A stretch of 64,000 nt of DNA from an uncultured Actinomycetes bacterium (GCA_963771385.1 CAVYTE010000012.1:145877-209876), one strand, 5' to 3'. Counted from the first letter of the stretch, positions 2,492 to 54,869 are shown. A program made the numbers and translations. The notes: generated by a model not told the origin, from the letters alone.

Positions 2492-2502
2492 CGCGGCCGA
2501 GT

Positions 2503-13840: not shown

Positions 13841-14651
13841 GTGCGCCGCCCGCTCACCTCCGTCACCCTCATCGCGTTCGTCGCGATCGTCTCGCTCGCC
13901 GCGTGCACCTCGGACGACGAAGGGACGTCGGACCCGACGGCAAGCGGACCAACGGCGTCTGGATCGAACACCGGGAGCGCGCCACCCACCGGACCGTCGA
14001 CCGGGAGCGCCACACCGAGCGCGAGCGAGGAACCGGCGCCGGAACTCCAACTGCCGGCCGACGCACCCAGCTCGGTCGACGACTCCGCCGACGTCGCGCT
14101 GATCGAGGCCGGGGATCACTCGGTGCTCATCCCACCGGGGGCCGAGGACACGATCGCGATCCGTCAGACGACCCCCGACGATCCGATCGACCAGATCGCC
14201 GTGGCGTGGCGGCGCGGCTCCGACCCGTTCGCCCCCGAGGTCGGGTTCGTCGTGTGGCAGCGTTCCGATGCAGGACGACGACGCCGGCTGGCGAGCCGTC
14301 TACGCGTTCACCGACCGGCCGAGCGCGGGCGTCCTCGGCATCCGCGTCGTTCCCGCCGACCTCACCGGGGACGGCGTCGACGACCTGCTCACCGAGGAGC
14401 AGCGGGGCGGGAGCGGAGCCTGCGCCACCTGGCGGGTGATCGCCTCGGCCGCCGGGGGTGCGGCGGAGATCTACCGGCGCGAGGGCTGCGACACGGAGAT
14501 CTCGGCCGTGGACGGGGCGCTCGAGATCCGAGAGGCCGTCTTCGAGCCGGGCGACCCGCACTGCTGCCCGACCGCGTACCGGACCACCGTGCTCGAGTGG
14601 GACGGCCAGGCGTGGGCGGAGGTCTCCACCGAGGTCGAGCCCGCCCGCTAG
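13841..14651 (+). pseudogene. Lipoprotein of unknown function, one frameshift as sequenced
   Basis: MRRPLTSVTLIAFVAIVSLAAC (lipobox LAAC) followed by a Ser/Thr/Pro-rich linker. The C-terminal part (DLTGDGVDDLL, paired Cys) continues in ORF 14268..14651 after a break near 14265. It shares a frame with the next gene, which is why the ORF track shows one 1,934-aa ORF. Confidence 0.6.
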
Positions 14652-14770: not shown

Positions 14771-17700
14771 ATGAAGGCGGGAAGTGGCTTGAGCGTTCCC
14801 CGCGGCGCCCAGCGCATGGCGCTCATCGTGCTCGCATTCGTGCTGGCCGCGGCGGCATTCGGCGCGTTCCAGCAGGCGGGCAAGGCGAGCCATGCCCTCG
14901 AGGCTGAGGCCACCGCCTCGGCCGAGCGCGCCGCGGCAGCGGTCGGAGATGCCCTCGTCCCCGAGGACCTCGCCGGGCCGGTGAGCGGCGAGCGCTACCA
15001 GTCGCTCTCGTCCGTCGTGAACGCGGGGCTCGTCGGTCCGGACGACTCCGTCACCGTCCTCAACAGCGAGGCCGTCGTCGTCTTCGCTCAGGACCGAGAG
15101 ACCATTGGACTGAAGGAGTCGCGGGCCAAGGTCGCCCGCGTCCTGTCGGCCGGGACGCAGACGGAGCTGGGCGCCGGGACGTTCAGCGTCTTCGTCCCCG
15201 TCACCGTCGACGGGCCGTCCGACATCGCGGTCGTCGACGTCGCCGGTCCGTCCGATGCGATCGAGGCCGCTCGAGGGCCATGGATCGTCGTCGCGATCGC
15301 CGCGGGCATCCTCGCGCTGCTCGTGCTCGTGTACGCGTTCGCCCAGAACGGATCGCGGGCCGCCGGGTTCGGCGACGCCATCAGTCCCTCGCGGGTGCTC
15401 GACATCGAACGCCGGCACGAGAAGGAGATGGCGGGTCTGGAGAAGACGATCGAGCGGGCGAAGGCCGATGAGGCCGGCGTCCGCAAGGAGCTCGAGAAGG
15501 TCGCCGAGGACCTGACCGCGCACAAGAAGGTATTGCGGGAGCTCGACGAGGCCGTCAACAAGACGGAGGCGCGTGCCGCCGAGGCGGAGGGGAAGCTCGC
15601 CGATACCACCGCACGCATCGCCGAATCGCAGACGCGCGCCGACCACGCCGAGAAGGGCGAGAGCGAGGCGCGAGCCAGGATCACGGCGGCCGAGTCGCGT
15701 GCTCGGGACGCGGAACGGCAGACCGCGGAGGCCAACGCGAGAGCGAGGCAGGCCGAGGAGTGGGCCGAGGATCTGGCCGCGCTCGGCGACGACCTCGAGC
15801 GGGCCGGGTCGGGCAAGGACGAGGAGTTCAAGCAGCTCCGCAACTCGCTGGTGGAGGCCAAACGCCAGGCCGCGGTCGCGCGGGACGCGAAGCGCGAGCT
15901 CGCGGACCGCGTCGCGACCCTCGAGACGACAAACCGGACGCTCGAGGCCGAACGGGAGACGCTCGCGGCGGAGCGCAGCGCGCTCGCCGGGGAACGGCAG
16001 GCGCTCGTCGCGGAACGCGAGTCGCTCGAGCAGGCGCGTGGCTCCGCCGAGGGGGAAGCCGCGGCCACACGTGAGGAGCTGCAGCACGCGCAGCAGCAGC
16101 TCGAACACGCGGTCGAGACCTCCAAGTCGCAACTGGCAACGGCACGGCGCGAGCTCGAGGAGGGTGGTGCCGAGCTCGCCGCGGCGCGGAGCGAGCTCGA
16201 GGACGCCCGCGCGCGAGAGGCGGAGATGAGCGTTCGCGTCGCGGAAGCCAAGGCCGAGGCGGAGCGGTCCAGGGGGGAGGTCGAGCGGGCCAGGGCGGAC
16301 GCCGATCGCGCCGCTACCGAGATCGCGGCGGCCAGGCTGGCCGAACAGGCGAAGAGCGCGCAACTCGCAGATGTGAGCGACCGATCCTCATCGCTCCAAC
16401 GCCAGGTCGACGAGGCCGCCGAACAGCTCCGTGAGCAGCAGGAGCGAGCCGGTGCGGCCGAGGCGAAGGTGGTCGATCTCTTCCGTCAGGTGCAGGCGCT
16501 CGAGCAGCGGCCGGACCTCAGCGCCGAGATGGAAGCGGCCATCTCCGAGACCGCCTCACTGCGGACCTCGCTCTCGGCCGCGAACGAGCGAGCGGAGGAG
16601 CTGGAGAGGGAGCTCGGGTCCACGCGCTCGGAGATGGAGGTGGCGCAGCTCGCCGGGGCCGAGGTCGCGGATCGACTGAACGAGCAACGCACCCGTGCGG
16701 ATCGAGCGGAAGCCGAGGTTGCCGAGCTCACGCAGGAGGCGGCGGAGCTCGCCGGCGTGATCGCCGAACTCGAGGCCCGGCCGGACCTGACGACGGACCT
16801 CGACACCGCGCGGGATGAGCGGAACGCGCTCGGGGCTCACCTGGAGACCGCGTCGTCCGAGCTGTCCGCGGCACGGGCGGAGCTCCTCGTCGCCCGACGA
16901 GATGCGGAAATCGTGAACACCGAGCTCGAGGCGGCCCGCGCCGAGGTCGAGGCGCGCGCGCGGCGGATCGAAGAGCTCGAGGCCCGGCCGGACCTGACGG
17001 CGGAGCTCGAGGCGGCCCGCGCCGAGGTCGGATCGGGCAGGCAGCGGATCGACGAGCTCGAGGCTCGCCCCGACCTCAGCGCGGACCTCGAGTCCGCGAA
17101 GGACGAACGACGGGCGCTCGCGGCTCGACTGGAGGCGGCCACGAGCGAGCTCGATGCTGCTCGGCGCGACATCGTTGCGGCGCAGGGAGAAGCCGAGACG
17201 TTCAAGACCGACCTCGAGGCGGCACGAGCCGAGATCGGATCGGGCAGGCAGCGGATCGACGAGCTCGAGGCCCGCCCCGACCTCAGCGCGGACCTCGAGT
17301 CCGCGAAGGACGAACGACGGGCGCTCGCGGCTCGACTGGAGGCGGCCACGAGCGAGCTCGATGCTGCTCGGCGCGACATCGTTGCGGCGCAGGGAGAAGC
17401 CGAGACGTTCAAGACCGACCTCGAGGTGGCACGAGCCGAGATCGATGCGGTGCAAGGGGATCTCGAGGCGACACGTGCGGAGGCCCAGGTCGCGCGGGCC
17501 GAGCTCGAGGCGACCCGAGCCGAAGCCGGGACGTTCGAGTCCGACCTCGAGGCGACGCGGGCTGAAGCCGAGGCAGCGAAGACCGAGCTCGAGGCGACAC
17601 GAGCCGACGCGGATGTCGTGAACCGGGATCTCGACGCAGCACGCGCCGAGATCGAGACGGTCAAAGCCGATCTCGAAGCGATGCGAGCCACCGTCGGCGA

Positions 17701-19645
17701 GACCGAAGCCAACGAGCGAGCGCTCCACGACAAGCTCCGGTCGGCGCGAGAGAAGGCCGAAGCGCGCCGGCAGAAGAACGAGGGTCTCGTGGCGGAGCTC
17801 GACGCTGTCAACGCCGCCCTGGCGAGCGACCGGGCGGAGCTCGAGGCTGCCAACGCCGCGCTCGCGAGCGACCGGGCGGAGCTCGAGCGTGTCGCGAGTG
17901 AGCTGGCGACCGCGTCGACCGAGCTCGAGCGGACGAAGGACGATCTCGAGAACACCCGTGCCCTGGCCGGAAGGACCGAGGCGGATCAGCGCACGCTGGC
18001 GGCGGAGCTACGAACCACGGCCGAGGAGGCGGAGGCACGTCGACGCGAGGACAAGAGACTTCGCGCCGAGCTCGAGTCGAGGAAGGTGGAGGAGGCGCGA
18101 CTCGCCGCCGAGCTCGAAGCGCGGGGGGTGGAGGAGGCACGACTCGCCGACGAGCTCGAAGCGCGAGGTCTCGAGGAAGCTCGACTCGCCGCCGAGCTCG
18201 AGTCGAGGAGGGTGGAGGAGGCGCGGCTCGCCGCCGAGCTCGAAGCGCGGGGGGTGGAGGAGGCACGACTCGCCGACGAGCTCGAGAGCGGGCGGGTCGA
18301 GGTGGAACGGCTCCGGGCCGAGCTCGACGCGCGCCGGGTCGAGGAAGAGCGTCTCGGCGCCGAGTTCGAGACGGGGCGCGGTGAGGTGGAACGGCTCCGG
18401 ACCGAGCTCGAGGCCGGACGCGGGGAGGTGGAGCGGCTCCGCGCCGAGCTCGACGCACGGCGTGTCGAGGAGGAACGACTCGGCAGCGAGTTCGAGGCCG
18501 GGCGCGGGGAGGCGGAGCGGCTCCGCGCCGATCACGAGGCCGGCCGCGTCGAGCTGGACAACCTGCGAGCGGAACTGGAGCTCCAGCGAGCGGAGGCGGA
18601 CGGGCTTCGCGTCGAGTCCGAGAGCGCGCGAACGAGCGTCGAACGCCTCCGAGCCGAGAGCCTCGAGCTGCTGCAGGAGAAGGATCGACTCATCGAGCAC
18701 CTGCAGAGCTCGGAGTGGGAAGCCGGATCGGAACGCGCTCGCGCGGAGGAGCTCGCCCGGCGACAGGACACGCTCCAGGCGCACGCGGACGACGTCGCTC
18801 GGAAGGCGGCGGAGGAGGCCATGGCGGCCCGCAGCCGGCTCCTCGAGACGCAGGAAACGTTGGCTCGCTTCCAGAGCGAGCTCGAACAGGTCGCGACGAA
18901 CTCGGTGTCGGCCGGGGACATGGGCCTGGACGCCGACGGCGTCCAGGGGGTCGTCGACGCCATGTCGACGGATGCGAAACGCTCGCTCTCGGCCATCTTC
19001 GGGCTCGCACGGATGATGTCTTCACAGGGAGCACCCGATGAGGGGCGGATGCTCCAACAGCTCATGTCGCAGGCTCGCCGGATGGAGCACGCCCTCACCG
19101 ACATCCTCGACGCCGACCGCCTCGCCCGAGGGGAGGTCGTCCTCAAGCGGCGCAGCACCGAGATCGACACGCTCATCCGCCGCGTCGTGCGGGAGTTCCC
19201 GGTGACGGAGGGGCGTCAGGTCGAGGTGATCGCCGAGACCGCGACGATCCAGATCGATCCGGCGCGGCTCGAACGGCTCGTGGACGACCTCCTGTCCTCC
19301 GCGATGACGCGGACGCAGCGCAACGATCGTGTCGTCCTCCGCGTGGAACGGACCGACGACGGCGTGATGCTCGCGGTCGAGGGAGGCGCGGTCTCGGGGG
19401 TCGAGGTCGGACCGGCGGCGAGCTTCCTCGCCAAGCTGCACGGCGGGTGGACGTCGGCGGAGGCGCTGCCGGGCGGGCGCGGGGTCGCGCGCGTCTTCCT
19501 CCCGAGCGTCTGGGCGCCGGGAGGCGGGCCCGAAGCAGGAACCGCCTCGGAGGGTACCGCCGACGGCTCCGATCCGGCGATCCCGGCCCCGCCGGAGCCG
19601 GACGGCGAGAGCGAGCCAGCGGATCGAGCCGAGGCGACCGCCTAG
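14771..19645 (+). CDS. 1,624-aa membrane-anchored giant coiled-coil protein with a C-terminal histidine-less, degenerate histidine-kinase-like domain
   Basis: Uninterrupted frame from ATG 14771 (alternative ATG 14816). Two hydrophobic segments (residues ~16-33 and ~171-191) bracket a ~135-aa domain. About 1,150-1,200 residues of E/A/R/L-rich sequence with nested repeats follow. From 18962 the sequence is HisKA/HATPase_c-like (STDAKRSLSAIFGL, LVDDLLSSA, FLAKLHGGW) but lacks the H-box His and N-box Asn. Confidence 0.8.
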   Translation: MKAGSGLSVPRGAQRMALIVLAFVLAAAAFGAFQQAGKASHALEAEATASAERAAAAVGDALVPEDLAGPVSGERYQSLSSVVNAGLVGPDDSVTVLNSEAVVVFAQDRETIGLKESRAKVARVLSAGTQTELGAGTFSVFVPVTVDGPSDIAVVDVAGPSDAIEAARGPWIVVAIAAGILALLVLVYAFAQNGSRAAGFGDAISPSRVLDIERRHEKEMAGLEKTIERAKADEAGVRKELEKVAEDLTAHKKVLRELDEAVNKTEARAAEAEGKLADTTARIAESQTRADHAEKGESEARARITAAESRARDAERQTAEANARARQAEEWAEDLAALGDDLERAGSGKDEEFKQLRNSLVEAKRQAAVARDAKRELADRVATLETTNRTLEAERETLAAERSALAGERQALVAERESLEQARGSAEGEAAATREELQHAQQQLEHAVETSKSQLATARRELEEGGAELAAARSELEDARAREAEMSVRVAEAKAEAERSRGEVERARADADRAATEIAAARLAEQAKSAQLADVSDRSSSLQRQVDEAAEQLREQQERAGAAEAKVVDLFRQVQALEQRPDLSAEMEAAISETASLRTSLSAANERAEELERELGSTRSEMEVAQLAGAEVADRLNEQRTRADRAEAEVAELTQEAAELAGVIAELEARPDLTTDLDTARDERNALGAHLETASSELSAARAELLVARRDAEIVNTELEAARAEVEARARRIEELEARPDLTAELEAARAEVGSGRQRIDELEARPDLSADLESAKDERRALAARLEAATSELDAARRDIVAAQGEAETFKTDLEAARAEIGSGRQRIDELEARPDLSADLESAKDERRALAARLEAATSELDAARRDIVAAQGEAETFKTDLEVARAEIDAVQGDLEATRAEAQVARAELEATRAEAGTFESDLEATRAEAEAAKTELEATRADADVVNRDLDAARAEIETVKADLEAMRATVGETEANERALHDKLRSAREKAEARRQKNEGLVAELDAVNAALASDRAELEAANAALASDRAELERVASELATASTELERTKDDLENTRALAGRTEADQRTLAAELRTTAEEAEARRREDKRLRAELESRKVEEARLAAELEARGVEEARLADELEARGLEEARLAAELESRRVEEARLAAELEARGVEEARLADELESGRVEVERLRAELDARRVEEERLGAEFETGRGEVERLRTELEAGRGEVERLRAELDARRVEEERLGSEFEAGRGEAERLRADHEAGRVELDNLRAELELQRAEADGLRVESESARTSVERLRAESLELLQEKDRLIEHLQSSEWEAGSERARAEELARRQDTLQAHADDVARKAAEEAMAARSRLLETQETLARFQSELEQVATNSVSAGDMGLDADGVQGVVDAMSTDAKRSLSAIFGLARMMSSQGAPDEGRMLQQLMSQARRMEHALTDILDADRLARGEVVLKRRSTEIDTLIRRVVREFPVTEGRQVEVIAETATIQIDPARLERLVDDLLSSAMTRTQRNDRVVLRVERTDDGVMLAVEGGAVSGVEVGPAASFLAKLHGGWTSAEALPGGRGVARVFLPSVWAPGGGPEAGTASEGTADGSDPAIPAPPEPDGESEPADRAEATA
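16493..17454 (+). repeat. In-frame long tandem repeats (69-aa / 207-bp unit) inside the giant gene
   Basis: The motif LE(A/Q)RPDL recurs with R codons at 16508, 16778, 16985, 17066 and 17273. Unit 17041-17247 is repeated at 17248-17444 with 2 mismatches in my base-by-base comparison. Confidence 0.85.
18068..18613 (+). repeat. 13 in-frame tandem copies of a 42-bp (14-aa) unit ELExRxVEEARLAx
   Basis: Units start at 18068, 18110, 18152 and so on up to 18572. Units 2 and 5 are identical, and units 1/4, 7/10 and 8/11 are near-identical, giving a 126-bp higher-order period. Confidence 0.85.
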
Positions 19646-21921
19646 ACCATCACGGCGGTGCTTCGGCGCCGTCCGGTCTTCTGCACGACGATCGACGCGG
19701 GGAACTGGTCCTTGATGCGCTCCGCGTGAGTGATCACGAACAACTGGTGGAACCGACCCGCCAACATCCCGAGCGCCCGGACCATCAGGTCCTTGCGCTC
19801 CTCGTCGAGCGAACCGAGCACCTCGTCGAGCACCATCAACCCGACGTCGGCACCGGAGACGCGCGACAGGTGCGTGGAGATGGCGACGCGGAGCGCGAGG
19901 TTCGCGAGGTCGATCTCCGAGCCCGAGAACCGATCGATCGGGAAGTACGCGTCACCGTCCGCGATCCGGATCTCGAGGCTCTCCTCGTCCACGCGCAGGT
20001 CGTCGTACGCGTGGTTCGTGAGCTCGCGGAACAACGCCTCGGCCTCCCGCGAGAGCTCGGGACCGACGCGCGCGACGAGATGATCGCGGAAGCCGTCCAG
20101 CAGCATCGCCACCCGTTCGACGTACCGGGCGTCGGAGCGGAGGTCATCGACGCGAGACGCGATCTCCTTGGCCTGTCCGAGCGCCCCGGCGAGCTCGCTC
20201 CGCTTGAGCTCCGCGCGTTGCAGCTCGACGCCCGCCGAGCGTTCGGCCTCGACGGCCTCCTCGACCGCCTGCTCGGCGCGTTGCAGGTCCTCGGTCGAGC
20301 GTGCGTGTTCGGCCGGGTCGAACGAGATCGCGCTCGCCTCGTCCGTCAGCTTCGCGAGCTCGTCCTCGAGCACCGCGATCCGAGCGTCCGCGGCGGACAG
20401 ATCCGTGCGGAGCTGCGCAGCGAAGCCCCGGTGCGCACCCAGCTCCGCGATCCGCTCCCCGAGGACCCGGGCCCGCTCGGCTCCTGCGCGGAGCTCGTTG
20501 ACGTCGGGCGGGACCCCCTCGAACGGCTGGGCGAGGGGCGCGAGCTCGGCGCGCATCGCGTCGAGCTGTTCCGTCAGCCGTGTGCGCTGCTCGCCGGCGC
20601 GCCGAGCGTCTTCGGCTGCCGAGATCGCCGCGTCGAGCGCCTTCACGACCTTCGCCAGCGCGGTCTGCGCACGTTCGGCGGAGGCCGACGCGTCGGCGGC
20701 CGTCCGTTTCGCGCTCGCGACCTCGGCCTTGCAATGCTTCACGTACGCGGCGAAGTCCTCGAGCGGCCGGCCGCACGTCGGACACGGTTGCGTCGGGTCG
20801 GCTTCGGCGGCCCGGTCCAGACGCGCCTGAGCCTCCTCGAGCGCCGAGACGCGTTGGTTGAGCTCGGCCTGCGCGCCCGCCGCCGCGGCCTGCGACTCCC
20901 CGTGCGCCGCCTGCGCCTGCCCGAGCGCGTCGAGGGCGGCCTCGGCTTCGACCTCGGGGAGCGAGATCAGCTGCAACTCCACCGCATGCGCCCGGTCGGT
21001 CGCCTCGACGAAACGCAGGCCGAGCCGCAGTCGCTCGTCCGCGTCGCCGAACCCGGCGAGCTCGGACTCGAGCTCCGGAAGTGCCTCGAGCTCGGCCGCG
21101 AGCCGCTCGAGCCGCTCCCCCAGCTCGTCGCGCTCGGTCAGCCGCTCGTCACGGCGCTCGACCTTCTCGGTCAGGAGCGCGCCGAGCCGCTCGATGCGTT
21201 CTCGCGCCCGGTCGATCCGCCGAAACGCCTCCGTGGCCGCCTTGGCCTGCTTCGTCGTCGCCTTCCGCGCCTCCTGCGCGTCCTTCGCGACGCGCTTCGC
21301 CTCGGCCGCCGCCTCCCCGGCGTCCTTCAGTTCCGCCTCGAGCGCGGCCAGATCCGGCACGGCCTCCTGGAGCTGGGCGGCGTTCTCCTTGGCCGCGCGG
21401 GCCTGCCGGCGGGCGGCGGTGCGCGCGTCGTCGACCGGCTTGATGCCGAGCAAGCGCAGCGCCATCTCGACGCGTTCGCCGCGCCGCAGGTCCGAGAACG
21501 CGTCGAGCTGCTTCTGCTCCGCGTACACGGAAGCTCGGAACACGCGCAGGTCCATGTGGAGGATCCTGGCGATCTCCTCGTTCACCTCGGTCGTCCCCGA
21601 CGCGAACGGGCGGGTCCCGACGAAGAGCTCGGCCTCCGGCGCATGGCCCCTCCCCTTGATGGCACGCCGGACCTCGAACTGCTGTCCGGCGTGCTCGAAC
21701 ACGAGACGCACCAGGCAGTCGGACAGGACGCCGTGGGTGCGGATCTCCTGTCGCTTGGTCCGCGCGGCCTCGGCCCCGTAGCAGGCGAACGCGATCGACT
21801 CCACGAGCGTGGACTTCCCGCTGCCGTTCTCGCCGAAGATCCCGATCACCCGAGCCGGCAGCTCGAGGTCGAGCTCCTCGAACACCCGGTAGTTGCGCAA
21901 CGACAGCTCGAGGACCCTCAC
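19642..21921 (-). CDS. sbcC: SbcC/Rad50-family DNA double-strand-break repair ATPase with zinc hook
   Basis: GTG 21921 within ORF 19642..22710. Walker A GENGSGKSTL, long coiled coil with central PCPTCGRPL hook, signature RFSGSE, Walker B LMVLDEVLGSLD, and ITH near the C-terminus. The start overlaps the sbcD stop. Confidence 0.9.
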   Translation of the reverse strand: MRVLELSLRNYRVFEELDLELPARVIGIFGENGSGKSTLVESIAFACYGAEAARTKRQEIRTHGVLSDCLVRLVFEHAGQQFEVRRAIKGRGHAPEAELFVGTRPFASGTTEVNEEIARILHMDLRVFRASVYAEQKQLDAFSDLRRGERVEMALRLLGIKPVDDARTAARRQARAAKENAAQLQEAVPDLAALEAELKDAGEAAAEAKRVAKDAQEARKATTKQAKAATEAFRRIDRARERIERLGALLTEKVERRDERLTERDELGERLERLAAELEALPELESELAGFGDADERLRLGLRFVEATDRAHAVELQLISLPEVEAEAALDALGQAQAAHGESQAAAAGAQAELNQRVSALEEAQARLDRAAEADPTQPCPTCGRPLEDFAAYVKHCKAEVASAKRTAADASASAERAQTALAKVVKALDAAISAAEDARRAGEQRTRLTEQLDAMRAELAPLAQPFEGVPPDVNELRAGAERARVLGERIAELGAHRGFAAQLRTDLSAADARIAVLEDELAKLTDEASAISFDPAEHARSTEDLQRAEQAVEEAVEAERSAGVELQRAELKRSELAGALGQAKEIASRVDDLRSDARYVERVAMLLDGFRDHLVARVGPELSREAEALFRELTNHAYDDLRVDEESLEIRIADGDAYFPIDRFSGSEIDLANLALRVAISTHLSRVSGADVGLMVLDEVLGSLDEERKDLMVRALGMLAGRFHQLFVITHAERIKDQFPASIVVQKTGRRRSTAVMV

Positions 21922-23050
21922 ACGGTCTCCCCGCGCGCGTCGGACAGGAACCCGGCGCCGATCGACACGACCCGCTCGCGTTCGAGCCCCGCCAGATCCT
22001 GCAGCTCGACGTACGACGTCCACTCCCGCTCGAGCGAACCGATCGTGGGACCGCCCTGAATCGCGAGCGCCTCGGCGCCGAAGTCCGGCTCGACCTGGAC
22101 CCAGATCGCGCTCGGGACGGCCTCGTGGAACTGCTCGCCCGCGATCTGTCGGAACGACGCCGGGTCCACCTCGTTCAGGTAGACCCGCACGATCGCGCGC
22201 TCGGGGATCCCGCGCGCCGCGCGCTCGACCGCGTCGACGAGCTCGCCGGCCGACAGCCCGGCGGCCGCGACGCTCACGGTGGCGAGCGGACGCTCGTGCG
22301 GGTTCTCCACGTGCTCGACCGTCCCCGCGTCGGTGTCGATCACGACGAGCCCCTTCGCGGCCTCGGGCGTGTCCGCGTACGAGAACGTGTCGGTCGAGCC
22401 CGCGTACCACGTGCGCTTCGAGACCTTCTGGTGCGCGTGGTAGTGGCCGAGCACGACGAGGTCGAACCCGCGTGTGGAACGCCGCCTCCTCGACCTCGAG
22501 CTCGTTGATGTCGGGATAGATCGCGAGCCGGCAGCGAGGTGAGCGCGACGTGCGCGAGCAGCAGGTTCGTGCGGTCGGGCCGGACCGCGGCGGCCGCGGC
22601 CGCGAGCTGCTCGCGAAGCTCCTCGACCGACAGCGTCTGCGGAACGGCGTGAACCGCGACCCCGGCCAGTTCGGTGGCCATCGCCTCCATGCGCCAGGCG
22701 AACGCGACACCGGGGAACACCCGCTCCAGCGCGTCGTACGGCGAGCCGGTTCCGCGGACGCGGGGCGTGTCGTGGTTGCCGCTGATCGCGGCGCCTCGCA
22801 GGCCGGCGTCGGTGAGACGTTGGAGCCCGCCGAGCACGTGCGCGAAGGTCCGATAGGTCGGCCTCGCGTGATCGAAGATGTCTCCGAGCCACAGGAAGCC
22901 GTCGGGTTCCTGCCGGATCGTCTCGTCCACCGCCCAGGCGAACGAGCGGAGGAAGTCCTCCTCGCGGAGGTTCCGGCCCTCGTCGTCCCGCAGGTGCGCG
23001 AGGTGCGTACGCCCGAGGTGGGCGTCCCCGAGCGCGACGAGCCTGCTCAT
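21918..23050 (-). pseudogene. sbcD: SbcD/Mre11-family nuclease, two frameshifts as sequenced
   Basis: Phosphoesterase motifs GDAHLG, WLGDIFDH and SGNHD (ORF 22340..23050), then IYPDINELEVEEAAF (third frame), then DLVVLGHYHAH (ORF 21918..22892). Breaks near 22525 and 22470. Confidence 0.85.
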
Positions 23051-23072
23051 CGGCGCGTGCGCGTGCCTCGCG

Positions 23073-24643
23073 TCACTCCGCGAACCCCTGCGCTCCGCCC
23101 GAGGGCCGCGGCGGCAACGGCGAGGGACCCTGTACCGACTTCAGGTACTCCTCGTAGAGGTAGACCATCGCCGGCAGGGCGAACGGCGAATCCAGGTTCG
23201 TCACGATCGCCTCGCCCGGCATGAGGGTCTGGATCTCGGGACCGAGGTCCGTGATGTCCTGCTTCGAGCTCCCGCGCAGGATCGTGCGGTCCTTCTCGTC
23301 GGCGAGCCCGAGGATGAAGAACGTGTTGAACTGCGACAGCAGCTCGTCGTCGATCAGCTTCGGCTGCTGGCTGACCGCGCACAGGCCCGACCTTGAACTT
23401 CCGCCCCTCCCGCGCCACCCGGGGGAAGACGTTCTCGTCCGAGCGCGTCGCGCGCGAGAGCACGCGCTGGGCCTCCTCCAGCGCGATCGAGCGTCGGTGG
23501 CAGGGCGGCGAACCGCTCGCGGTCGTCCAGGAAGACCGAGCCGTACGCGTCGAGCACGCGCCGGGTGATGACCGATGCGACGAGGATCTCCTCCATGGAC
23601 GACAGACCGCTCGTGTCGACGAGCACCGAGTAGCCGTCCATCAGCTCGTCGACGATGCGCTCGGACAGCGACGGCTGGGACGGATCGCGCGAGATGCACG
23701 GCATGTCCAAGATCCGCTGGGCGCGACGCTGGATCACCTGGAGGGTGCTCGTCGCGACGCCCGAGCTGCTCGGCGAGGTCGCTCACGTCCTGTTCCTCGC
23801 CCACGCGAACGATCCACTCCTCGTGGAAGAAGCGGATCAACCGGTAGATCGCGTCCTCCTGCGGGTGGCTCCAGTCGTATGCCGTCTGCAGGTCGCCCAG
23901 CGTGAGCTCGCCGAGCGAGAGGCGGAGCGCGGTGGCCCCGGCGCCGGCCGCTCGCGTCGCGTAGACGCGCAGGCGGTCGGCGGCCCATGGGTGTTCGCGC
24001 AGGCCGCGGCGGATCCCGCTCCCACCTTCGAGGTACTCGCCGTGCGGGTCGAACAACAGGCACGCGTACCGGCCCTGCGAGGACAGGATCTGGCCCGCGA
24101 GCACCTTCATGAGGTTCGACTTGCCCATCCCGGTCGTGGCGAAGACCCCGACGTGCGACGTGAGCGTCTCGCCCTTGATGCCGACCTCGAGGTCGATCGT
24201 GTCTTCGCCCGACCGGAGCAGCCCGACCCGCAGGTCGCCCATCCGCTCGTGGAGGAAGGCGAAGTCCTGCGGCGTCGGCGCCGTGACCCGGGCGAACTGC
24301 GCGGGCAGCGACTTCGGCTTGCGGAACTCCCCCGCCGGGTCGATGTAGCCCAGCGGCTGGCACGTCGCCACCTTGTAGAGGCGCTGCTCCGGGTCGTGCA
24401 GCGTGTACGGGGAACCGGCGGCGTCGCCGGCCATGTACGCGCCGGCCGTGCGCTCGGGCCATCCCGGGATCGGAGGACTCCGAGCCGTACGCCACCTGGA
24501 TCACGCGGAACAGGAACCGGCGCGCGCGTTCGGCGTCCTCGGCCGACCAGCAGCTCACCGAGGAACAGGTCCGTCCCGTAGAAGGAGCGGAAGGTCGCCT
24601 CCAGGACGCTGCGGCCGAAGATCCGGCCCTTGTACGCGCTCAC
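23073..24643 (-). pseudogene. herA: HerA-type hexameric DNA helicase/translocase ATPase, about five frameshifts as sequenced
   Basis: Walker A HVGVFATTGMGKSNLM; LLFDPHGEY; C-terminal VSQQPKLIDDELLSQFNTFFILGL and PGEAIV. The pieces lie in ORFs 24107..24880, 23734..24558, 23073..24434, 23354..23737 and 23047..23463. The GTG start overlaps the nurA stop (GTGA). Confidence 0.8.
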
Positions 24644-25743
24644 CGGTTCAGGACCTCGTGGAAGTCCTGGAACAGCACCTCGATGTCGTCTTCCGACATG
24701 CCCCGCCGTGAGAGCGCCTCGCGGAAGGAGCGGCGAACGTCCACCACGTCGTAGCCGGTGACCCTCGCCGCCTGGTGGGCCCGCGCGAGGGGGTAGGGGT
24801 AGCCGACGAACGCGGGATCGTCGGCGAGCCCGGCGAGCCGACCGAGCACCTCTCCGCGGGGGCGGGCCCGTGCGCGACATCGACGCGGAACGCGAACGGA
24901 GCGGTCGGTGCCAGGTGCGCGACGAAGATGTCCCCGACGTACAGCCGCGCGAACACCGGATCGGTCGAGATCCGGGCGCTCCATGCCGACGCTCCCCGTT
25001 CGCGGTCGCCGCGACGTTTCAGCAACGTGACGAGCGGAGCGTTGCGACCCCAGTAGAGCGTGGAGGCCTTCACGACACCGGCGAGCGACACGCCGCGTTC
25101 GACGGCCTCCGCGTGGACGCGCCGGACCACGACGGCGGGAACGAGCGGCCCGCCGTGCAGCGAACCGTCCACCAGGACCAGATCGCCAGAGGCCGCTTCG
25201 CGGACCGTCCGAGCGACCTCGGCCCACTCGCCCCACTCACGGAGCGCGTCGACGGGCCGCGGCATCTCGGGCAACCGCTCGGGCTCCGCTGCCGCACAGC
25301 TCGCGCAGGACGGAGCGAGCGAGCTCGGCCATCTCCTCGGGGGGAAGCGCGCGGACCGAGAGCGGCGGCGTCTCCACCCGTTCGGTCACGCCGGCCTCGA
25401 ACCGCACGCGCGCGGCCCGGTACGCCGCCACCTGGAACGAACGACCGTCGGCGACCACGCACGACCCGCCGTCGACCGCCCAGACGCGGCCGGGATCGGC
25501 GGGCTCCACCGGGACCAGCTCGAACGCGTCGGGGTGGCCCTGGACCACGAGCGCCTCGTCGAGGGAGGCCTGGCCCTCCATCACCCGGATGTCCGAGCCG
25601 GGGCGCTCGAGCAGGTTCACGACGAAGGACGCGGCCTCGTCGAGCTGCCCGCGCTCGACGATGTCGAGGTTGAGCACGCCTGGGTCCGCGCTTCCGAGCA
25701 CGGCCGAAGCGTAGCGGAGGCTTCGGACAGGGCCCGGAAGCAC
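24640..25743 (-). pseudogene. nurA: NurA-family 5'-3' nuclease, two frameshifts as sequenced
   Basis: VWAVDGGSCVV, DLVLVDGSLHG, SLAGVVKAS and GYPYPLARAHQAARV spread over ORFs 25237..25743, 24648..25274 and 24640..25236. Breaks near 25290 and 24865. The GTG start follows GAGGAGGAAGG. Confidence 0.75.
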
Positions 25744-25792
25744 GCCGCCTTCCTCCTCGGGGTGGGCGACACGGCCCCTCCGTGTGGCCGAG

Positions 25793-25808
25793 TAGTCATT
25801 CGTGACTA
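25793..25808. promoter_or_regulatory. AT-rich inverted repeat TAGTCA-TTCG-TGACTA in the divergent nurA / 25900 intergenic region (candidate operator overlapping a -10-like ACTAAT)
   Basis: Perfect 6+6 bp inverted repeat read directly from the sequence. It is the only AT-rich patch in the 156-bp divergent spacer. Confidence 0.35.
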
Positions 25809-25899
25809 ATCACCCCTTCGGGGGACTCCACGTAGGCCGCTGACCTGCCGATACGACCCCTGACGCGCCAAGCCCGCGGTGTCGTGAGAGAGGAACGAG

Positions 25900-27132
25900 A
25901 TGGTGGGCTCCCTAGCCAGACGGCATCGCCGACCCCTCTGGGGGGCCCTGGCCTTCCTGCTGGTCGTCGCGATCGCCGTCTCCATGTACAGCGCGTCGAC
26001 GGCGAAGGACGCCGCGATCGCCGAGGCGGAGATCGACGCGAAGCTCACCGCACAGACGGAGCTCGCGACGTTGCTCGAGCCCCGCGACCTGGAAACACCG
26101 ATCTTCAACGAACGCGCCGACGAGCTCACCGCCCTCATCGACACGCAGATCACCTCCGTCAGTCGGATCGACGAGGTCCGGATCTTCTCCGCGATCGGAC
26201 GGATCCTCTACGCGGACGACCCGACGATCGTCGGGACGCGACCGTCCTACCTTCGTGAGCTGACCTTCGAGGTCGCGAACGGCGAGGCGCAGACGCATGC
26301 GCGCGGCTCCCTGCTCCAGACGTTCGTCCCGATCTGGATCTCCCCCGACGGCACGGTGGCCGTCGCGGAGATGTCGCAGGCGCTCGCACCGATCACCTCG
26401 GCGGCGGCGGCGGGATGGAACACGATCGCGCTGATCTGCGCGGTGCTCCTGCTCGGAGCCATCGTGATGATCGTCGTGACGAGCCTCGCGCAGCCAACGC
26501 AGCCTTCCAACCTGCCGGTCCACGTGTACGCGCCCGTGTCCGTCCCGTCCGGGGCGGAGGGGACCCAGGCGCCGGCGGTCGTGGCGGTGGACGCTCCGCT
26601 GAACCAGCAGCCCGGGTTCCGCGAGATCGACGAGCTGCGACGGACGGCCGAGAGCCGCGCCCGGGCCAGCGAGCAGGACCTCCGGGGCGTGCGCACGCAG
26701 CTGAAGGATGCGCTCGCCCAGGTCGCGCTGCTCGAGGAGGAGCTCACGATCCAGGGCACCGGCCAACAGGATTGCGAGGCACTGCGCGACCAGTTCCGCG
26801 AGTCGAGCGAGCGGCTGAACCTGATCGAGATGGAGAACACGGCGCTGCGCGAGCGGCTGCACCTGCGTGAGCAGGAGCTCGAGGAGGTGCGGGCGCGCCT
26901 GCGATCCTCGCAGACCGCGCCGGCGGGGATGAGCGAGCTGCGACAGCGCCTCGAAGGCGCGGAGGAACGCGCCTCACAGATGGCGAGCGAGATGAAACGG
27001 ATCGAGACGGAGCTCGACGACACGACGACCCGCCTCCACATGTCGAGCCTGACGGAAGCGCTCCGGGAAGCCGGACACGTCGACCCCGAGATGGAGGACC
27101 AGGACTCGCCGCCGATCGTGGTGGATCGGTAG
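25900..27132 (+). CDS. Membrane protein: TM, sensor-like ectodomain, TM, then ~200-aa coiled coil; paralogue of the N-terminal part of the giant protein
   Basis: ATG after GAGAGAGGAA. TM segments LWGALAFLLVVAIAVSMY and WNTIALICAVLLLGAIVMIVV. The ectodomain aligns by eye with the giant protein (VRIFSAIGRILYADD / VTVLNSEAVVVFAQD; FVPIWISPDGTVAVAEM / FVPVTVDGPSDIAVVDV). Confidence 0.7.
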   Translation: MVGSLARRHRRPLWGALAFLLVVAIAVSMYSASTAKDAAIAEAEIDAKLTAQTELATLLEPRDLETPIFNERADELTALIDTQITSVSRIDEVRIFSAIGRILYADDPTIVGTRPSYLRELTFEVANGEAQTHARGSLLQTFVPIWISPDGTVAVAEMSQALAPITSAAAAGWNTIALICAVLLLGAIVMIVVTSLAQPTQPSNLPVHVYAPVSVPSGAEGTQAPAVVAVDAPLNQQPGFREIDELRRTAESRARASEQDLRGVRTQLKDALAQVALLEEELTIQGTGQQDCEALRDQFRESSERLNLIEMENTALRERLHLREQELEEVRARLRSSQTAPAGMSELRQRLEGAEERASQMASEMKRIETELDDTTTRLHMSSLTEALREAGHVDPEMEDQDSPPIVVDR

Positions 27133-27172
27133 CGGTCGATGAACGAACCCGAGGAAGCGTGGTGAGCAGGCG

Positions 27173-28726
27173 ATGGCCGACACGATCGCGATGATGCAGG
27201 GCCGCGAAGCGAGCGAACCGGGCGACCGGGCGACCGAGGACGGCGGCCTCATCAGCCGCGTCTCGGCCGCCGGGTACCAGGTCGCGCAGGCGGTCGACGG
27301 ACTCGAGCAGGCGGTTGGACTGCTCCGCGCCGCCGAGGAGCTGGCTCGAGACGCGGACGCACGCCGCGGCGTCGCAGAGCAGCGGCTCGCGGGCGCGCAG
27401 ACCGAGGTCGCCGAGCTCACCGACATGCTCACGATCGCCCGCGCCGCGCAGACCGACACGGACGAACGCGCACGCGCGGCAGAGCAGCGGCTCGCGACCT
27501 TGCAGGGCGAGATCGAACAGCTGACGGACATGGTCCGGGTCGCCCGCGCCGCCCAGGCAGACGCGGACGAACGCGCACGCGCCGCGGACCAGCGGTTCGC
27601 CGGCGTCCGCGGGGAGATCGAGGAGCTCACCGGGTTGGTCGCCGCGGCACGCGCCGCCCAGGCCGACGCGGACGAACGCGCACGCGCGGCCGACCAGCGG
27701 TTCGCCGGCGTCCGCGGGGAGATCGAGGAGCTCACCGGGTTGGTCACCGCGGCACGCGCCGCGCAGGCCGAGTCCGACGAGCGCGCCCGGCTGGCCGACG
27801 AGCAGGCGCGGCTCTCCGACGAGCGCGCCCGGCTGGCCGAGGACCGCTTCGAGCGGGTGTCCGACCGAACCACGGCGATGGAGCTCGCCCTCGGCGATCT
27901 CGAGGACCGCTGGCGCTCCGCCGAGACGACCCCGCAGGTCACGCTGGTGGGCGAACGTGACGAGCTGCAGGAGGCGGTCGCGGCGGAGATCCGCCGGCCG
28001 CTGACCTCGATCCTCGGGCTCACGCTCGCCCTGAAGCAGGCGGACGTGAAGGCGAACGACGGCAAGCACATGGTGCGCCAGCTGGGGACGAACGCGAAGC
28101 GCCTGGAGCGGCTCGTCGAGCAGATGCTCGACCTCGACAAGATCGCGAACGGCACGTACGAGCCCAAGCGACGCCGCTCCGACCTGGCGGCGCTCGTCGG
28201 TCGCGTCGCCGAGGAGACGCCCGACATCGCGAACCGCGACCTGAAGATCGCCGGCGAGCACGTGGCGATCGAGGTCGACCCCGGCCTCACCGAGCAGATG
28301 GTCGAGACGCTGCTGTCCAACGCCGGTCGCCGGACCGCGCCGGGAGGGAAGATCTGGATCACGGTCGTCCCCGAAGCGGACGGGGCGGTCATCGCGGTCG
28401 ACGACGCCAGCGCCGATGCGCTGCCGGCGATGCCGAGCGACAGGGAAGCGGCCGGCGCTCGGTCGCAGCGGGCGCGGGCCTCCGGCCTCCCGCTCCTCTC
28501 CCGTCTGGCCGAGCTGCACGGCGGCCGGGCGTGGGTCGAGGAGCGCGAGGGGGGCGGTGCGTCGTTCCGGGTCTTCCTTCCCGGCGGGTCCTCGAGCGAG
28601 TCGGAGGTCACCGCGGTCGACCTGATCGAAGACGTCGACGAGCTGCCGTTCGAAGCCGATCGGGTCGAGGGGGCGCTCCGCGAGCTGTCGAGCTTCGACG
28701 ACCTGTCCGGCGGGGTCGCGATCTAG
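27173..28726 (+). CDS. Cytoplasmic coiled-coil protein with a histidine-less histidine-kinase-like C-terminal domain; paralogue of the C-terminal part of the giant protein
   Basis: 35-aa repeats are followed by AAEIRRPLTSILGLTLAL, an H-box with Ala at the His position. Then LLSNAGRRTAPGGKIWI, a degenerate G1 box (DDASAD), and SGLPLLSRLAELHGGRAWVEE..FRVFLP. Confidence 0.75.
   Translation: MADTIAMMQGREASEPGDRATEDGGLISRVSAAGYQVAQAVDGLEQAVGLLRAAEELARDADARRGVAEQRLAGAQTEVAELTDMLTIARAAQTDTDERARAAEQRLATLQGEIEQLTDMVRVARAAQADADERARAADQRFAGVRGEIEELTGLVAAARAAQADADERARAADQRFAGVRGEIEELTGLVTAARAAQAESDERARLADEQARLSDERARLAEDRFERVSDRTTAMELALGDLEDRWRSAETTPQVTLVGERDELQEAVAAEIRRPLTSILGLTLALKQADVKANDGKHMVRQLGTNAKRLERLVEQMLDLDKIANGTYEPKRRRSDLAALVGRVAEETPDIANRDLKIAGEHVAIEVDPGLTEQMVETLLSNAGRRTAPGGKIWITVVPEADGAVIAVDDASADALPAMPSDREAAGARSQRARASGLPLLSRLAELHGGRAWVEEREGGGASFRVFLPGGSSSESEVTAVDLIEDVDELPFEADRVEGALRELSSFDDLSGGVAI
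27350..27769 (+). repeat. Four in-frame tandem copies of a 105-bp (35-aa, five-heptad) unit
   Basis: Units start at 27350, 27455, 27560 and 27665 (D[AT]DERARAA[ED]QR[LF]A..EI[E]ELT..ARAAQA). The last two units differ at only a few bases. Confidence 0.8.
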
Positions 28727-28818: not shown

Positions 28819-29010
28819 GTGCCGAAGGTCTGGGGCCTCTCGAAGCAGCAGGCGAACTACCGGACCGCGCCGAAGCCCGCCGTCCGGTGCTCGGCCTGCA
28901 CGTACATGTTCCCGCGCCTGTCGATCGGCGGGTGCCGCCTCGTCCGCGGCGTGATCAGCGGCTCGGCCACGTGCAACGAGTTCTCGCCCCGCTCGAAGCC
29001 GGGCACGTAG
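28819..29010 (+). CDS. 63-aa four-cysteine protein with HiPIP-like Cys spacing
   Basis: GTG within ORF 28531..29010. RCSACTYMFPRLSIGGCRLVRGVISGSATCNEF gives C-x2-C-x11-C-x12-C, resembling the high-potential iron-sulfur protein pattern. No signal peptide seen. Confidence 0.4.
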   Translation: MPKVWGLSKQQANYRTAPKPAVRCSACTYMFPRLSIGGCRLVRGVISGSATCNEFSPRSKPGT

Positions 29011-29028
29011 CCCGTCCACGCGGCCGGA

Positions 29029-30190
29029 CTACCCGAGCGTTCGCAAAAGCTCCCGGGCGATCACCACGCGCTGGATCTGGTTCGTGCCCTCGTAGATCTG
29101 CGTGATCTTCGCGTCGCGCATGAACCGCTCGACCGGGTACTCCCGCATGTAGCCGTACCCCCCCAACACCTGCACCGCGTCGGTCGTGATCCGCATCGCG
29201 GCGTCGGAGGCGAAACATTTCGCGATGCTCGAGAAGTACGTCATTCGGGGATCGCCGGCGTCGCAGAGCGCGAGCGCCTTGTACACGAGGAGGCGGGCGG
29301 CCTCGAGCTGCGACGCCATGTCGGCGAGCATGAACGACACGCCCTGGAACTCCACGACCGGCTTCGCCGAACTGCTGCCGCTCGCTCGCGTAGCGGGCCG
29401 CGACGTCGAGCGCACCCTGCGCGATCCCGAGCGCCTGCGCCGCGATCGCCGGCCGCGAGAAGTCGAGCGTCCGCATCGCGTAGCCGAACCCCTTGCCCTC
29501 CTCGCCGATCAGCCGGTCGGCCGGCAGACGGACGCCCTCGAGGATCACCTCGCGCGTGGGCGAGCCGCGGATCCCCATCTTGTCCTCCTTGCGCCCGAAC
29601 TCGACGCCCGGGTCGTCCCGCATCACGAGGAACGCCGAGACCCCGTTCGTCCGCAGCGACGGGTCCGTCGTCGCGAACACCACGTACGCATGGGAGACGC
29701 CGGCCCCGGTGATGAACCGTTTCGTCCCGCTCAGCACCCAGCCGTCCGCGTCGCGCTCGTAGCGGGTCGTCATCGCCGCCGGATCCGAGCCCGCGCCGGC
29801 CTCGGTCAGCGCGTACGACATGAGGAGCTCACCGCGGGCGATGCCCCCGGTCATGCGGGCGGCCTTGTCCGCGTCTCCGGCCACGACGAGCGGGATCACG
29901 CCGAGCTTGGACACGAGCGGGGTGAGCGAGACCCCGGCCGAGACCCGGGACAGCTCCTCGATGAACACGCCGAACGCGAGGGAGCCACCCCCCGAACCGC
30001 CGTGCTCCTCCGGATACCCCACGCCCATGAGGTCGTTCTCGACGAGGATCTTGTAGACGTCCTCCGGCCACTCGTCGGTCTCGTCGATCTCGGCCGCCCG
30101 GGGTTCGATGCGTTCCTCGGCGATCCGGCGAACGAGCCTGCGGAAGTCCTCGAGCTCCTCGGGCAGCTCGAAACGCTCGAGATCTCCCAT
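29029..30190 (-). pseudogene. Acyl-CoA dehydrogenase, one frameshift as sequenced
   Basis: ORF 28955..30190 (YALTEAGAGSDPAAM, GWVLSGTKRFITG) continues in ORF 29029..29415 ([44 protein letters not shown]). Break near 29370. Confidence 0.9.
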
Positions 30191-50329: not shown

Positions 50330-50439
50330 GGGGAAGGGCCTTTCCTACCGAACGCCCTGATGGGATGTCAACCGTGCCCGCTCGTGAAGCCCGTTGCAAT
50401 CACCCTCGGCCACGCACGGACCAGCCTTGAGCGAGCGGG

Positions 50440-54808: not shown

Positions 54809-54869
54809 GTCCGAAGGATACGGGCGGCGCGCGACATCCACGCACGCGTCCGCGGGTCAGGCGCTCGGG

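Follow-up and report, generated by a model that had tools for sequence, protein, structure and literature searches.

Evidence for an ancient gene fission in a family of histidine-less, kinase-like transmembrane proteins of uncultured Actinomycetota

Results

A and B match opposite ends of fused positional orthologues

We analysed a stretch of 64,000 nucleotides (nt) from an uncultured Actinomycetes bacterium (GCA_963771385.1 CAVYTE010000012.1:145877-209876; the whole stretch is called the window below) and concentrated on two adjacent genes, A and B, which encode a membrane sensor half and a soluble, histidine-kinase-like half, respectively. The explanation that best fits all observations, and which we regard as probable, is that A and B form a genuine two-gene operon, that they are the product of the fission of one gene, that the two proteins re-associate, and that the module made of the dimerization and histidine phosphotransfer (DHp) and the catalytic and ATP-binding (CA) domains does not serve as a phosphodonor.

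The fission part of this explanation draws on fused relatives. An exhaustive search with a profile of the N-terminal domain (N-domain) of A gave 1,119 representative clusters at E ≤ 1e-3, of which 290 had E ≤ 1e-10. Among the best 150 clusters, counted approximately, 35 were fused proteins of 620-1,285 amino acids (aa) with the N-domain at residues ~1-205 and a kinase-like domain at the C-terminus, 55 were proteins of 300-550 aa without a kinase-like domain, and the rest were fragments or truncated. Five fused genes (P0187, 1,210 aa; P0149, 886 aa; P0183, 1,274 aa; P0192, 818 aa; P0186, 951 aa) were found in the chromosomal slot of A+B, in that they lie directly upstream of a convergent acyl-CoA dehydrogenase and/or thiolase gene that is shared with the A+B slot (>600 bits). 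Of the loci concerned, L019 has the thiolase only and L021 ends inside the dehydrogenase gene. The genes for FtsH, glyoxalase and ADH come next in L017-L020, and an SbcCD-type operon lies upstream of, and divergent from, the fused gene in L018 and L021, where the contig reaches that far. Both domains are encoded in one uninterrupted open reading frame (ORF) in L017-L021.

A aligned with residues ~1-340 of the five fused proteins (E 1e-9 to 6e-18), and B with their last 200-320 residues (37-47% identity, E 1e-28 to 1e-69). On these alignments A and B behave as a Rosetta-stone pair, with non-overlapping and colinear matches to one and the same fused protein, and the shared flanking genes identify the composite proteins as positional orthologues of A+B. 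The lengths agree as well: A and B together amount to 927 aa in the window and to ~840 aa in typical relatives, which fits the fused forms of 818-951 aa. An earlier, sequence-only reading of the window had proposed that the two halves are functionally coupled, and had based this on a giant fused paralogue in the same genome. Our comparison supports the proposed coupling on a stronger basis, as positional orthology makes a better Rosetta-stone argument than an in-genome paralogue.

The direction of the event was read from gene order, which was decisive, and from a rough neighbour-joining tree of the N-domain, in which the A-like short forms made up one clade among fused clades and a few short representatives were scattered elsewhere. 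Since the split clade is nested among fused clades, and since the fused orthologues occupy the A+B slot and are closer to A and B than the giant is, A+B appear to have arisen by an ancient fission in the coiled-coil linker of a single ancestral slot gene.

The split itself recurs widely. The length of A stays within 400-445 aa in more than 100 homologues, with identities as low as 38%, and the best 120 homologues of B listed have a median length of 419 aa. A was directly followed by B in 11/11 further loci that cover the start of B (10 assemblies). The spacing between them was 5-40 nt overall, with 40 nt in L005 and L006 and 5-7 nt in L001, L002 and L016; in the last of these, a deep split member, B starts 5 nt past the stop codon of A. 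No case of A without B was seen where the contig continues. Judged by these homologues and by the same-species comparison given below, the A/B split is old and conserved, and not a sequencing artefact.

A carries the predicted membrane sensor and B a kinase-like module without its phospho-acceptor

Gene A encodes a transmembrane (TM) segment, an ectodomain, a second TM segment and a cytoplasmic coiled coil, followed by a conserved tail (Table 1). The first four of these had been noticed in the sequence-only reading, which likened them to the N-terminus of the giant, and hydropathy, AlphaFold2 (AF2) modelling and the heptad periodicity of residues 235-395 (z=5.5 vs shuffles) all agree with that layout. 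Profiles of coiled-coil proteins (SMC, EzrA and others) gave weak, compositional matches far below the cut-offs. The ectodomain is the best-conserved region of A; this highly conserved domain had a mean column identity of 62% in an alignment of 21 N-domains and contains the near-invariant blocks GRILYA.DP.IVGTRPSYLR, LLQTYVPIW and GTVVVAEMSQ.

An AF2 model of residues 1-215, built from the same 21 N-domains, had a mean predicted local distance difference test score (pLDDT) of 86 and a predicted template modelling score of 0.72, and consisted of a long TM-plus-stalk helix, a five-stranded alpha/beta domain and a TM helix. With this model, Foldseek matched the ectodomain to CitA (1p0z and 2j80), DcuS (3by8) and WalK (4ywz), with target-normalised template modelling scores (TM-scores) of 0.58-0.65 and E 2e-4 to 7e-3. 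The modelled fold is of the PDC/single-Cache type, in that a long N-terminal helix is followed by an alpha/beta PAS-like fold between TM helices. At the level of family models, the N-domains of A and of the giant matched no Pfam or NCBIfam family above cut-off, including the curated sCache, dCache and PDC models; the sole sCache trace was a precomputed weak sCache_3_2 match on the fused relative P0192.

Gene B lies in a reading frame different from that of A and starts 40 nt past its stop codon. The two ORFs have similar G+C contents at third codon positions (0.91 for A and 0.92 for B) within a window of 71% G+C. Hydropathy revealed no TM segment in B, and AF2 predicted a continuous helix across residues 25-250, which is built in part from tandem repeats. 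The length of B varies among relatives, from 517 aa in the window to 488 aa in L005; the B ORF of 483 aa in L006 is not comparable because a frameshift shortens it. Pfam detected HisKA (33.6 bits, cut-off 26.9) and HATPase_c (43 bits) in B, both above the cut-offs, and Foldseek matched its C-terminal half to HK853 (TM-score 0.67) and to DivL (4q20, TM-score 0.68), with E 2e-15. A repeat-built coiled coil joined to a kinase-like domain is thus what the downstream gene contains, as the sequence-only reading had described it.

The H-box of B reads AAEIRRPLTSILGL and has Ala271 (27983-27985) at the phospho-acceptor position, in register with the His of the canonical relatives (SHELRTPL). The N-box Asn383 is retained (LLSNAGRRT), and the G1 (DDASADA) and G2 (RASGL) boxes are eroded. 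These peculiarities had been picked out by eye beforehand, namely an H-box with Ala in place of His, the N-box LLSNA and a degenerate G1 (DDASAD), together with an acidic tail on the first gene and a purine-rich run before the second; each was found again here, the last two as the acidic linker of the A tail and as GAGGAAG / GGTGAG in the spacer. B ends with the motif RELSSFDDLSGGVAI, which is kept in L005, L007, L009 and L012, resembles the C-termini of the fused proteins P0187 and P0183, and is a possible short linear docking motif.

We then compared the kinase module across the family. Some members of the wider family are true kinases, as P0230, P0245 and P0215 combine SHELRTPL with a full set of N, G1, F and G2 boxes. 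The remaining members have lost the canonical H-box, and the His is gone in nearly all of them; P0177 and P0183 keep a His within an altered box, SHDARKSL. In 119 B-family clusters the phospho-acceptor position was occupied by Ala in 88, Ser in 16, Thr in 15 and His in 0, in line with the earlier suggestion that the loss of His is conserved and not a one-off error. The ATP lid is deleted in the giant and in many fused members; B-type domains, those of the fused P0192 and P0186 included, keep the lid, the N-box Asn (115/119 clusters) and a remnant of the DxG motif. A second His, in an LKH motif (K-H His) at the DHp hairpin ~17 residues past the missing one, is conserved in most fused members and in 115/119 B clusters. 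The lineage of the window has Gln instead (28037-28039, residue 289 of B), and the giant lacks this His.

With the histidine kinase fold kept and the loss of the catalytic His conserved, B is classed on its sequence as a histidine pseudokinase. The B of the window lacks two marks of a working HisKA kinase, the acceptor His and a set of intact N, G1 and G2 ATP boxes. From this loss of motifs we infer a role of DHp/CA that is independent of phosphotransfer.

Table 1. Positions of A, B, their parts and the neighbouring features within the window
Feature	Position	Strand	Description
Gene A	25900..27132	+	410 aa, membrane sensor/anchor half with TM1, PDC/sCache-like ectodomain, TM2, coiled coil and conserved tail; >120 homologues, all ~400-445 aa
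TM1 of A	25936..25998	+	~residues 13-33, within a hydrophobic segment at ~11-35; Kyte-Doolittle windows >1.8; AF2 helix 8-58
Ectodomain of A	25999..26397	+	~residues 34-166; PDC/sCache-like, predicted extracytoplasmic; AF2 pLDDT ~90
TM2 of A	26398..26499	+	~residues 167-200; hydropathy; AF2 helix 162-196
Cytoplasmic coiled coil of A	26602..27030	+	~residues 235-377; heptad periodicity
C-terminal tail of A	27031..27129	+	split-specific; candidate docking site for B
A-B spacer	27133..27172	+	40 nt; Shine-Dalgarno-like purine runs GAGGAAG / GGTGAG
Gene B	27173..28726	+	517 aa, soluble coiled coil + His-less DHp/CA (pseudo-histidine-kinase) half
N-terminal head of B	27242..27322	+	split-specific; GLxSRVSAAGYQVAQAVDGL...; candidate docking site for A
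Tandem repeats of B coiled coil	27350..27803	+	105 nt (35 aa, five heptads); Tandem Repeats Finder: 4.2 copies, 80-84% matches
DHp-like helical hairpin of B	27953..28147	+	residues 261-325; AF2 helices 261-289 and 295-325
CA-like (HATPase_c) domain of B	28172..28582	+	residues 334-470; pLDDT ~90 except lid 420-435
C-terminal short helix and acidic motif of B	28658..28723	+	RELSSFDDLSGGVAI; last ~20 residues; AF2 helix 496-505
Giant paralogue	14771..19645	+	1,624 aa; N-domain 1-195, coiled coil ~1,190 aa, DHp/CA-like 1386-1590
Rad50/SbcC, Mre11/SbcD, HerA, NurA operon	19642..25809	-	Pfam; between the two paralogues, divergent from A

Split-specific termini suggest how the two halves could work together

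Both ends created by the split carry conserved motifs. The tail of A consists of (F/L)HMxKLSEALRE, an acidic linker and then (H)P(V/I)(V/I), which is PPIVV in the window. It was seen in split members, the deep member P0136 included, and its His380 is kept in 97/110 family members. The head of B has the consensus GLxxR(I/V)S(V/A)AG(L/Y)QV(S/A)QAxDxL and is kept in the B proteins of L001, L002, L005, L007, L010, L012 and L016. Among 150 representative clusters tested, the tail motif was absent from the fused members, and it was also absent from the giant; the head was undetectable in the giant and in all 150 clusters, the fused ones included. We had sought both motifs inside the fused proteins as a means of placing the fission point, and found neither. 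As they are missing from the fused forms, the motifs look like acquisitions made after the fission, and the A tail and the B head are likely to form a docking interface.

Given that the split is old and real, the two halves probably still work together, and in a way other than the usual transfer of phosphate. We propose that A would anchor the system in the membrane, where its conserved ectodomain would read an extracytoplasmic or envelope cue. The tightly spaced downstream gene would ensure that B is made in step with A, and B would then rejoin A non-covalently, through the A tail (FHMxKLSEALRE...PPIVV) and the B head (GLxxRISVAGLQVSQA...) and/or through a mixed coiled coil. In this arrangement the DHp/CA module would be a dimeric binding platform and not a phosphodonor, for which DivL and the PsmA of Streptomyces are precedents (PMC4211667, PMC12963549). 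The platform would hold or regulate a partner; response regulators, other kinases and structural proteins are candidates.

Several points weigh against this proposal or the history behind it. The tree was built by neighbour joining on a domain of 200 columns, without bootstrapping, and the counts of fused and short forms are approximate because many metagenomic proteins are truncated. In P0192 and P0186 a B-like kinase domain is combined with an N-domain that falls outside the group of A; recombination or uneven rates may therefore be part of the history. No response regulator was found among the neighbouring genes scanned in the window or among the called genes of L001-L005 and L017-L021. Lastly, the B family keeps the N-box Asn in 115/119 clusters, and an alignment of 35 B sequences shows no variation at the G1 Asp or at the Gly-Leu of G2; this retention makes nucleotide binding, or even catalysis on a different residue, possible in the family.

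Among other readings, one that joins several ideas has a small but appreciable chance of being right. It combines a PDC sensor and a dead kinase module on a coiled-coil ruler or tether, an architecture seen in most members examined, with dedicated docking of A and B and, perhaps, a relocated phospho-acceptor. The lineage of the window would have two such systems, one on either side of the Rad50-Mre11-HerA-NurA break-repair operon. The heptad repeats would set the length of the coil from ~20 to 170 nm and would hold the platform at a fixed distance from the membrane, possibly at the nucleoid, and the docking interface may have created the relocated acceptor, either His380 of A or the K-H His of B. 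If true, such an acceptor would make the pair a new kind of two-subunit transmembrane signalling device.

We give less credence to the idea that A and B diverged after the fission into an independent membrane coiled-coil protein and a soluble pseudokinase, with adjacency merely inherited. The neighbourhood is generally conserved core genome, which makes adjacency alone weak evidence for a continued association. Against a separation of the two proteins stand the adjacency of A and B, at 5-40 nt, at every locus examined down to L016, the failure to find A without B on any contig that continues, and the conservation of both new termini, which arose with the split; B also has no membrane anchor of its own.

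It is just as unlikely, in our judgement, that the pair is a working kinase in which the phospho-acceptor has been relocated to the K-H His of B or, in trans, to His380 of A. The ATP-box residues just listed speak for it, as does the frequency of the two candidate histidines (115/119 clusters and 97/110 members, respectively), and there are known split kinases in which the His resides on a protein of its own, as in CheA3/CheA4 (PMC3591291). The lineage of the window argues otherwise, with Gln in place of the K-H His and with G1 and G2 further eroded. The G1 glycines are variable across the family (TC, AS and MC variants), and the ATP lid is missing altogether from most fused relatives. Moreover, in known histidine kinase structures the tip of the hairpin lies far from the site at which the CA domain delivers phosphate.

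The giant is a sister of A+B and not their parent

The giant paralogue has two TM segments as in A and a coiled coil with strong heptad periodicity (z=17). In its kinase-like domain, Thr1400 takes the place of the His, the N-box Asn is lost and a deletion of ~28 aa removes the ATP lid. Its HisKA score of 15.1 bits is below the cut-off, yet the region aligns with B (residues 267-471 of B vs 1396-1579 of the giant) at 30% identity and E 1e-22. At the N-terminal end, pairwise BLAST of A against the giant was tried as a proof of homology and was marginal (E 0.003), so that a family profile was required. A profile of 110 A-family N-domains, tested against 2,667 six-frame ORFs from the window and related loci, matched residues 13-189 of the giant (profile positions 9-191) with 58 bits and E 1.4e-16, or E 4e-20 with the giant as lone target; the best unrelated ORF reached 7.4 bits. 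The ectodomain blocks that had been aligned by eye between A and the giant fell into the same columns of the profile alignment. By these alignments the giant is homologous to A and B at both ends, above chance.

The sequence-only reading had presented the giant and A+B as the fused and the split form of one protein. The significant similarity in both halves upholds one part of that claim; the other part, that A+B are a split copy of the giant, did not stand. The fused slot proteins are the closer matches to A and B, with 37-47% identity in the kinase-like domain vs 30% for the giant, and in the rough N-domain tree the giant and its orthologues P0260 and P0227 fell in a neighbouring fused clade. 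Furthermore, the giant is present in a sub-lineage comprising the window, L004-L009 and L014, with broken copies in L004-L006. Its slot does not contain it in L001 and L002/L003, and no copy was detected within the 10-kb flanks of L001/L011, L010 and L013. As the giant is restricted to part of the lineage, we take it to be a lineage-specific paralogue and not the template of the A+B split. Taken together, the sequence comparisons indicate that it is a second, more degenerate, lineage-specific paralogue, which is a sister and not the parent of A+B.

The reverse relationship, in which the giant is a derived form that arose by a recent fusion of duplicated A and B genes, is very unlikely. Its confinement to a sub-lineage would fit, as it makes the giant younger at this locus than A+B. 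Set against this, its N-domain groups with the fused P0260 and P0227 outside the split clade, and it shares the ~28-aa lid deletion and the loss of the N-box with the fused P0149, P0187, P0183 and P0166, whereas B keeps the lid. The giant also has neither the tail motif of A nor the head motif of B, and is only 24-30% identical to A and B, below the fused slot orthologues.

The coiled coil of the giant would measure ~170 nm if fully extended, as calculated for ~1,190 aa at 0.15 nm per residue. A coil of this length favours a function as a spacer, tether or scaffold over allosteric transmission. It contains, at 17006-17444 and 18062-18558, a 207-nt repeat (2.1 copies, 97% identical and hence recent) plus 42-, 84- and 126-nt arrays, the repeat periods of this coiled coil all being multiples of 21 nt, that is, whole heptads.

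The repeat region of the giant was rearranged or frame-broken in L004, L005 and L006, where the gene falls into two or more ORF pieces, and we considered whether the fused giant of the window might be the artefact. This idea was rejected. The frame breaks differ in place among the three loci and lie inside repeats, the downstream pieces keep the coding frame far upstream of the kinase-like domain, and in L007, L008 and L009 the slot is filled by an unbroken ORF, 1,240 aa or longer, in which the C-domain is present. Separately, a frame-shifted lipoprotein gene in the window runs into the ORF of the giant and produces a spurious ORF of 1,934 aa. A word-indexed protein database search with the N-terminal 230 aa of the giant yielded one match, P0121; it was the exhaustive profile search that exposed the family.

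The junction of A and B agrees between two assemblies

The sequence-only reading had named a sequencing indel that joins A and B as the observation that would overturn it. L006 is an assembly of the same species, with 96% identity over 18.4 kb. Between it and the window we counted 48 indels, all but one of them single-base and mostly an extra G or C, and none fell between 25773 and 28345, so that the two assemblies show no indel difference in gene A, across the junction or over most of B. The indel at 28345, inside B, is attributed to an error in L006, because the B of the window aligns over its full length to the family. That A and B are a single gene broken by a sequencing or assembly indel is scarcely credible: single-base differences from the same-species assembly do break the Rad50/Mre11, HerA, NurA, acyl-CoA dehydrogenase and FtsH genes of the window, but 0/48 lie in the A-B interval, the arrangement of stop codon, spacer and start codon recurs in L001, L002, L005, L006, L007, L009, L010, L012, L013 and L016, A ends at 400-445 aa, with the conserved tail, in over 100 homologues, and B carries its own conserved N-terminal head.

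The single-base indels elsewhere in the window lie at 19642-25809, 28955-30190 and 31939-32844, and also at 13841-14650. Those that break genes look like long-read homopolymer errors rather than marks of pseudogenes.

Genomic context and extent of the family

The operon between the giant and A is a bacterial version of the archaeal-type NurA-HerA-Mre11-Rad50 break-resection operon. It is syntenic in L001-L014, is broken by 1-nt indels in the window assembly, and its arrangement is kept in all A+B loci examined. We asked if the link to NurA and HerA extends beyond the A+B lineage, and this did not hold: HerA and NurA were unrecognisable upstream of the fused genes in L018 and L021, where only a weak SbcD match was obtained. 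The Rad50-Mre11-HerA-NurA operon is thus context, and not a proven functional part of the A/B system.

Elsewhere in the window, on the minus strand, 51647-54856 encodes a signalling protein of 1,069 aa with a zinc ribbon, an adenylate/guanylate cyclase domain, an AAA_16 ATPase domain and TPR repeats, and 49172-50344 encodes a PcsB-like coiled coil with an M23 peptidase domain, which suggests a cell-wall hydrolase. An Rfam scan of the window gave no match. In L015, positions 2399-3118 encode a LuxR-type response regulator (Response_reg + GerE) ~3 kb from the deep short member P0161. It is the only regulator seen near any family member, and the contig ends after the A-like gene and before any B.

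The family comprises ~1,100 clusters at 50% identity, so far from metagenomes and metagenome-assembled genomes only, and all sources that name an organism are Actinomycetota. We found no description of the A/B family in the literature, and the labels that its members carry in the source records ("KdpD", "signal transduction histidine kinase", "ATP-binding protein", "chromosome segregation ATPase") are uninformative or point in a wrong direction. The analysis thus defines a large family of His-less, histidine-kinase-like proteins from uncultured soil Actinomycetota, with extreme and rapidly evolving coiled coils. A+B would represent a natural fission, in which one transmembrane signalling protein was cut in its helical linker and the cut was maintained over a large clade. 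Such a fission predicts a testable, non-covalent interface of the A tail with the B head, and bears on how signal or position is transferred along coiled coils.

Comparison with known systems

Long heptad-repeat coiled coils as in A, B and the giant are also found in EzrA, Scy and FilP, membrane-anchored or cytoskeletal proteins of Gram-positive bacteria; those proteins differ from A+B in having neither a PDC ectodomain nor a DHp/CA module.

Two proteins have lost the phospho-acceptor of a histidine kinase in a comparable manner. According to two reports, DivL of Caulobacter crescentus is membrane-anchored, lacks the acceptor His and uses its DHp/CA as a binding or sensing platform (PMC4211667, PMC5361649). 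It resembles B in being histidine-kinase-like with the acceptor His missing, and 4q20, a structure of its C-terminal part, ranks with the best structural matches of B. The His site of DivL is occupied by Tyr, and the protein contains PAS domains. It differs from A+B in that it lacks both a long coiled coil and a PDC ectodomain, is a single polypeptide and belongs to the Alphaproteobacteria; we found no specific sequence relationship of the family to DivL.

PsmA (SCO4009), a protein of the Streptomyces polarisome, is described as lacking the H-box His, having non-conserved ATP motifs and showing no autokinase activity (PMC12963549). The same source states that PsmA interacts with DivIVA, alongside the coiled-coil proteins Scy and FilP, that it contains PAS domains and a REC domain besides a long disordered region, and that orthologues occur only in Streptomycetaceae (PMC12963549); the sections consulted mention no membrane segment or ectodomain. 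The present family differs from PsmA in its order of TM, PDC, TM and coiled coil, in the absence of a REC domain and in its origin from uncultured Actinomycetota. Pfam and NCBIfam gave no PAS or REC match in A, B or the giant. Without these domains the family is not orthologous to DivL or PsmA.

The overall plan of A+B, or of the fused forms, is that of the classical HisKA transmembrane sensor kinases, with TM segment, PDC-like ectodomain, TM segment, helical linker, DHp and CA in this order, and its parts resemble known kinases by fold, namely CitA, DcuS and WalK in the ectodomain and Thermotoga HK853 in the core. Unlike classical kinases, the proteins lack the acceptor His (Ala271 in B, Thr1400 in the giant), and the ATP motifs have undergone erosion in B and deletion in the giant. 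Tandem heptad repeats lengthen the helical linker to anything from 150 to >1,100 aa, the protein is divided over two genes in A+B, and no response regulator gene is adjacent.

Division of a histidine kinase over two polypeptides has precedents. Hik36-Hik43 of Synechocystis is reportedly a split histidine kinase made of two associating polypeptides. In Rhodobacter sphaeroides, the domains of one kinase are distributed over CheA3 and CheA4, which must associate (PMC3591291). Splits of the CheA3/CheA4 type place the His domain apart from the catalytic domain and retain phosphotransfer. In A+B, by contrast, the cut falls in the coiled-coil linker, and DHp and CA stay together on B in a His-less form.

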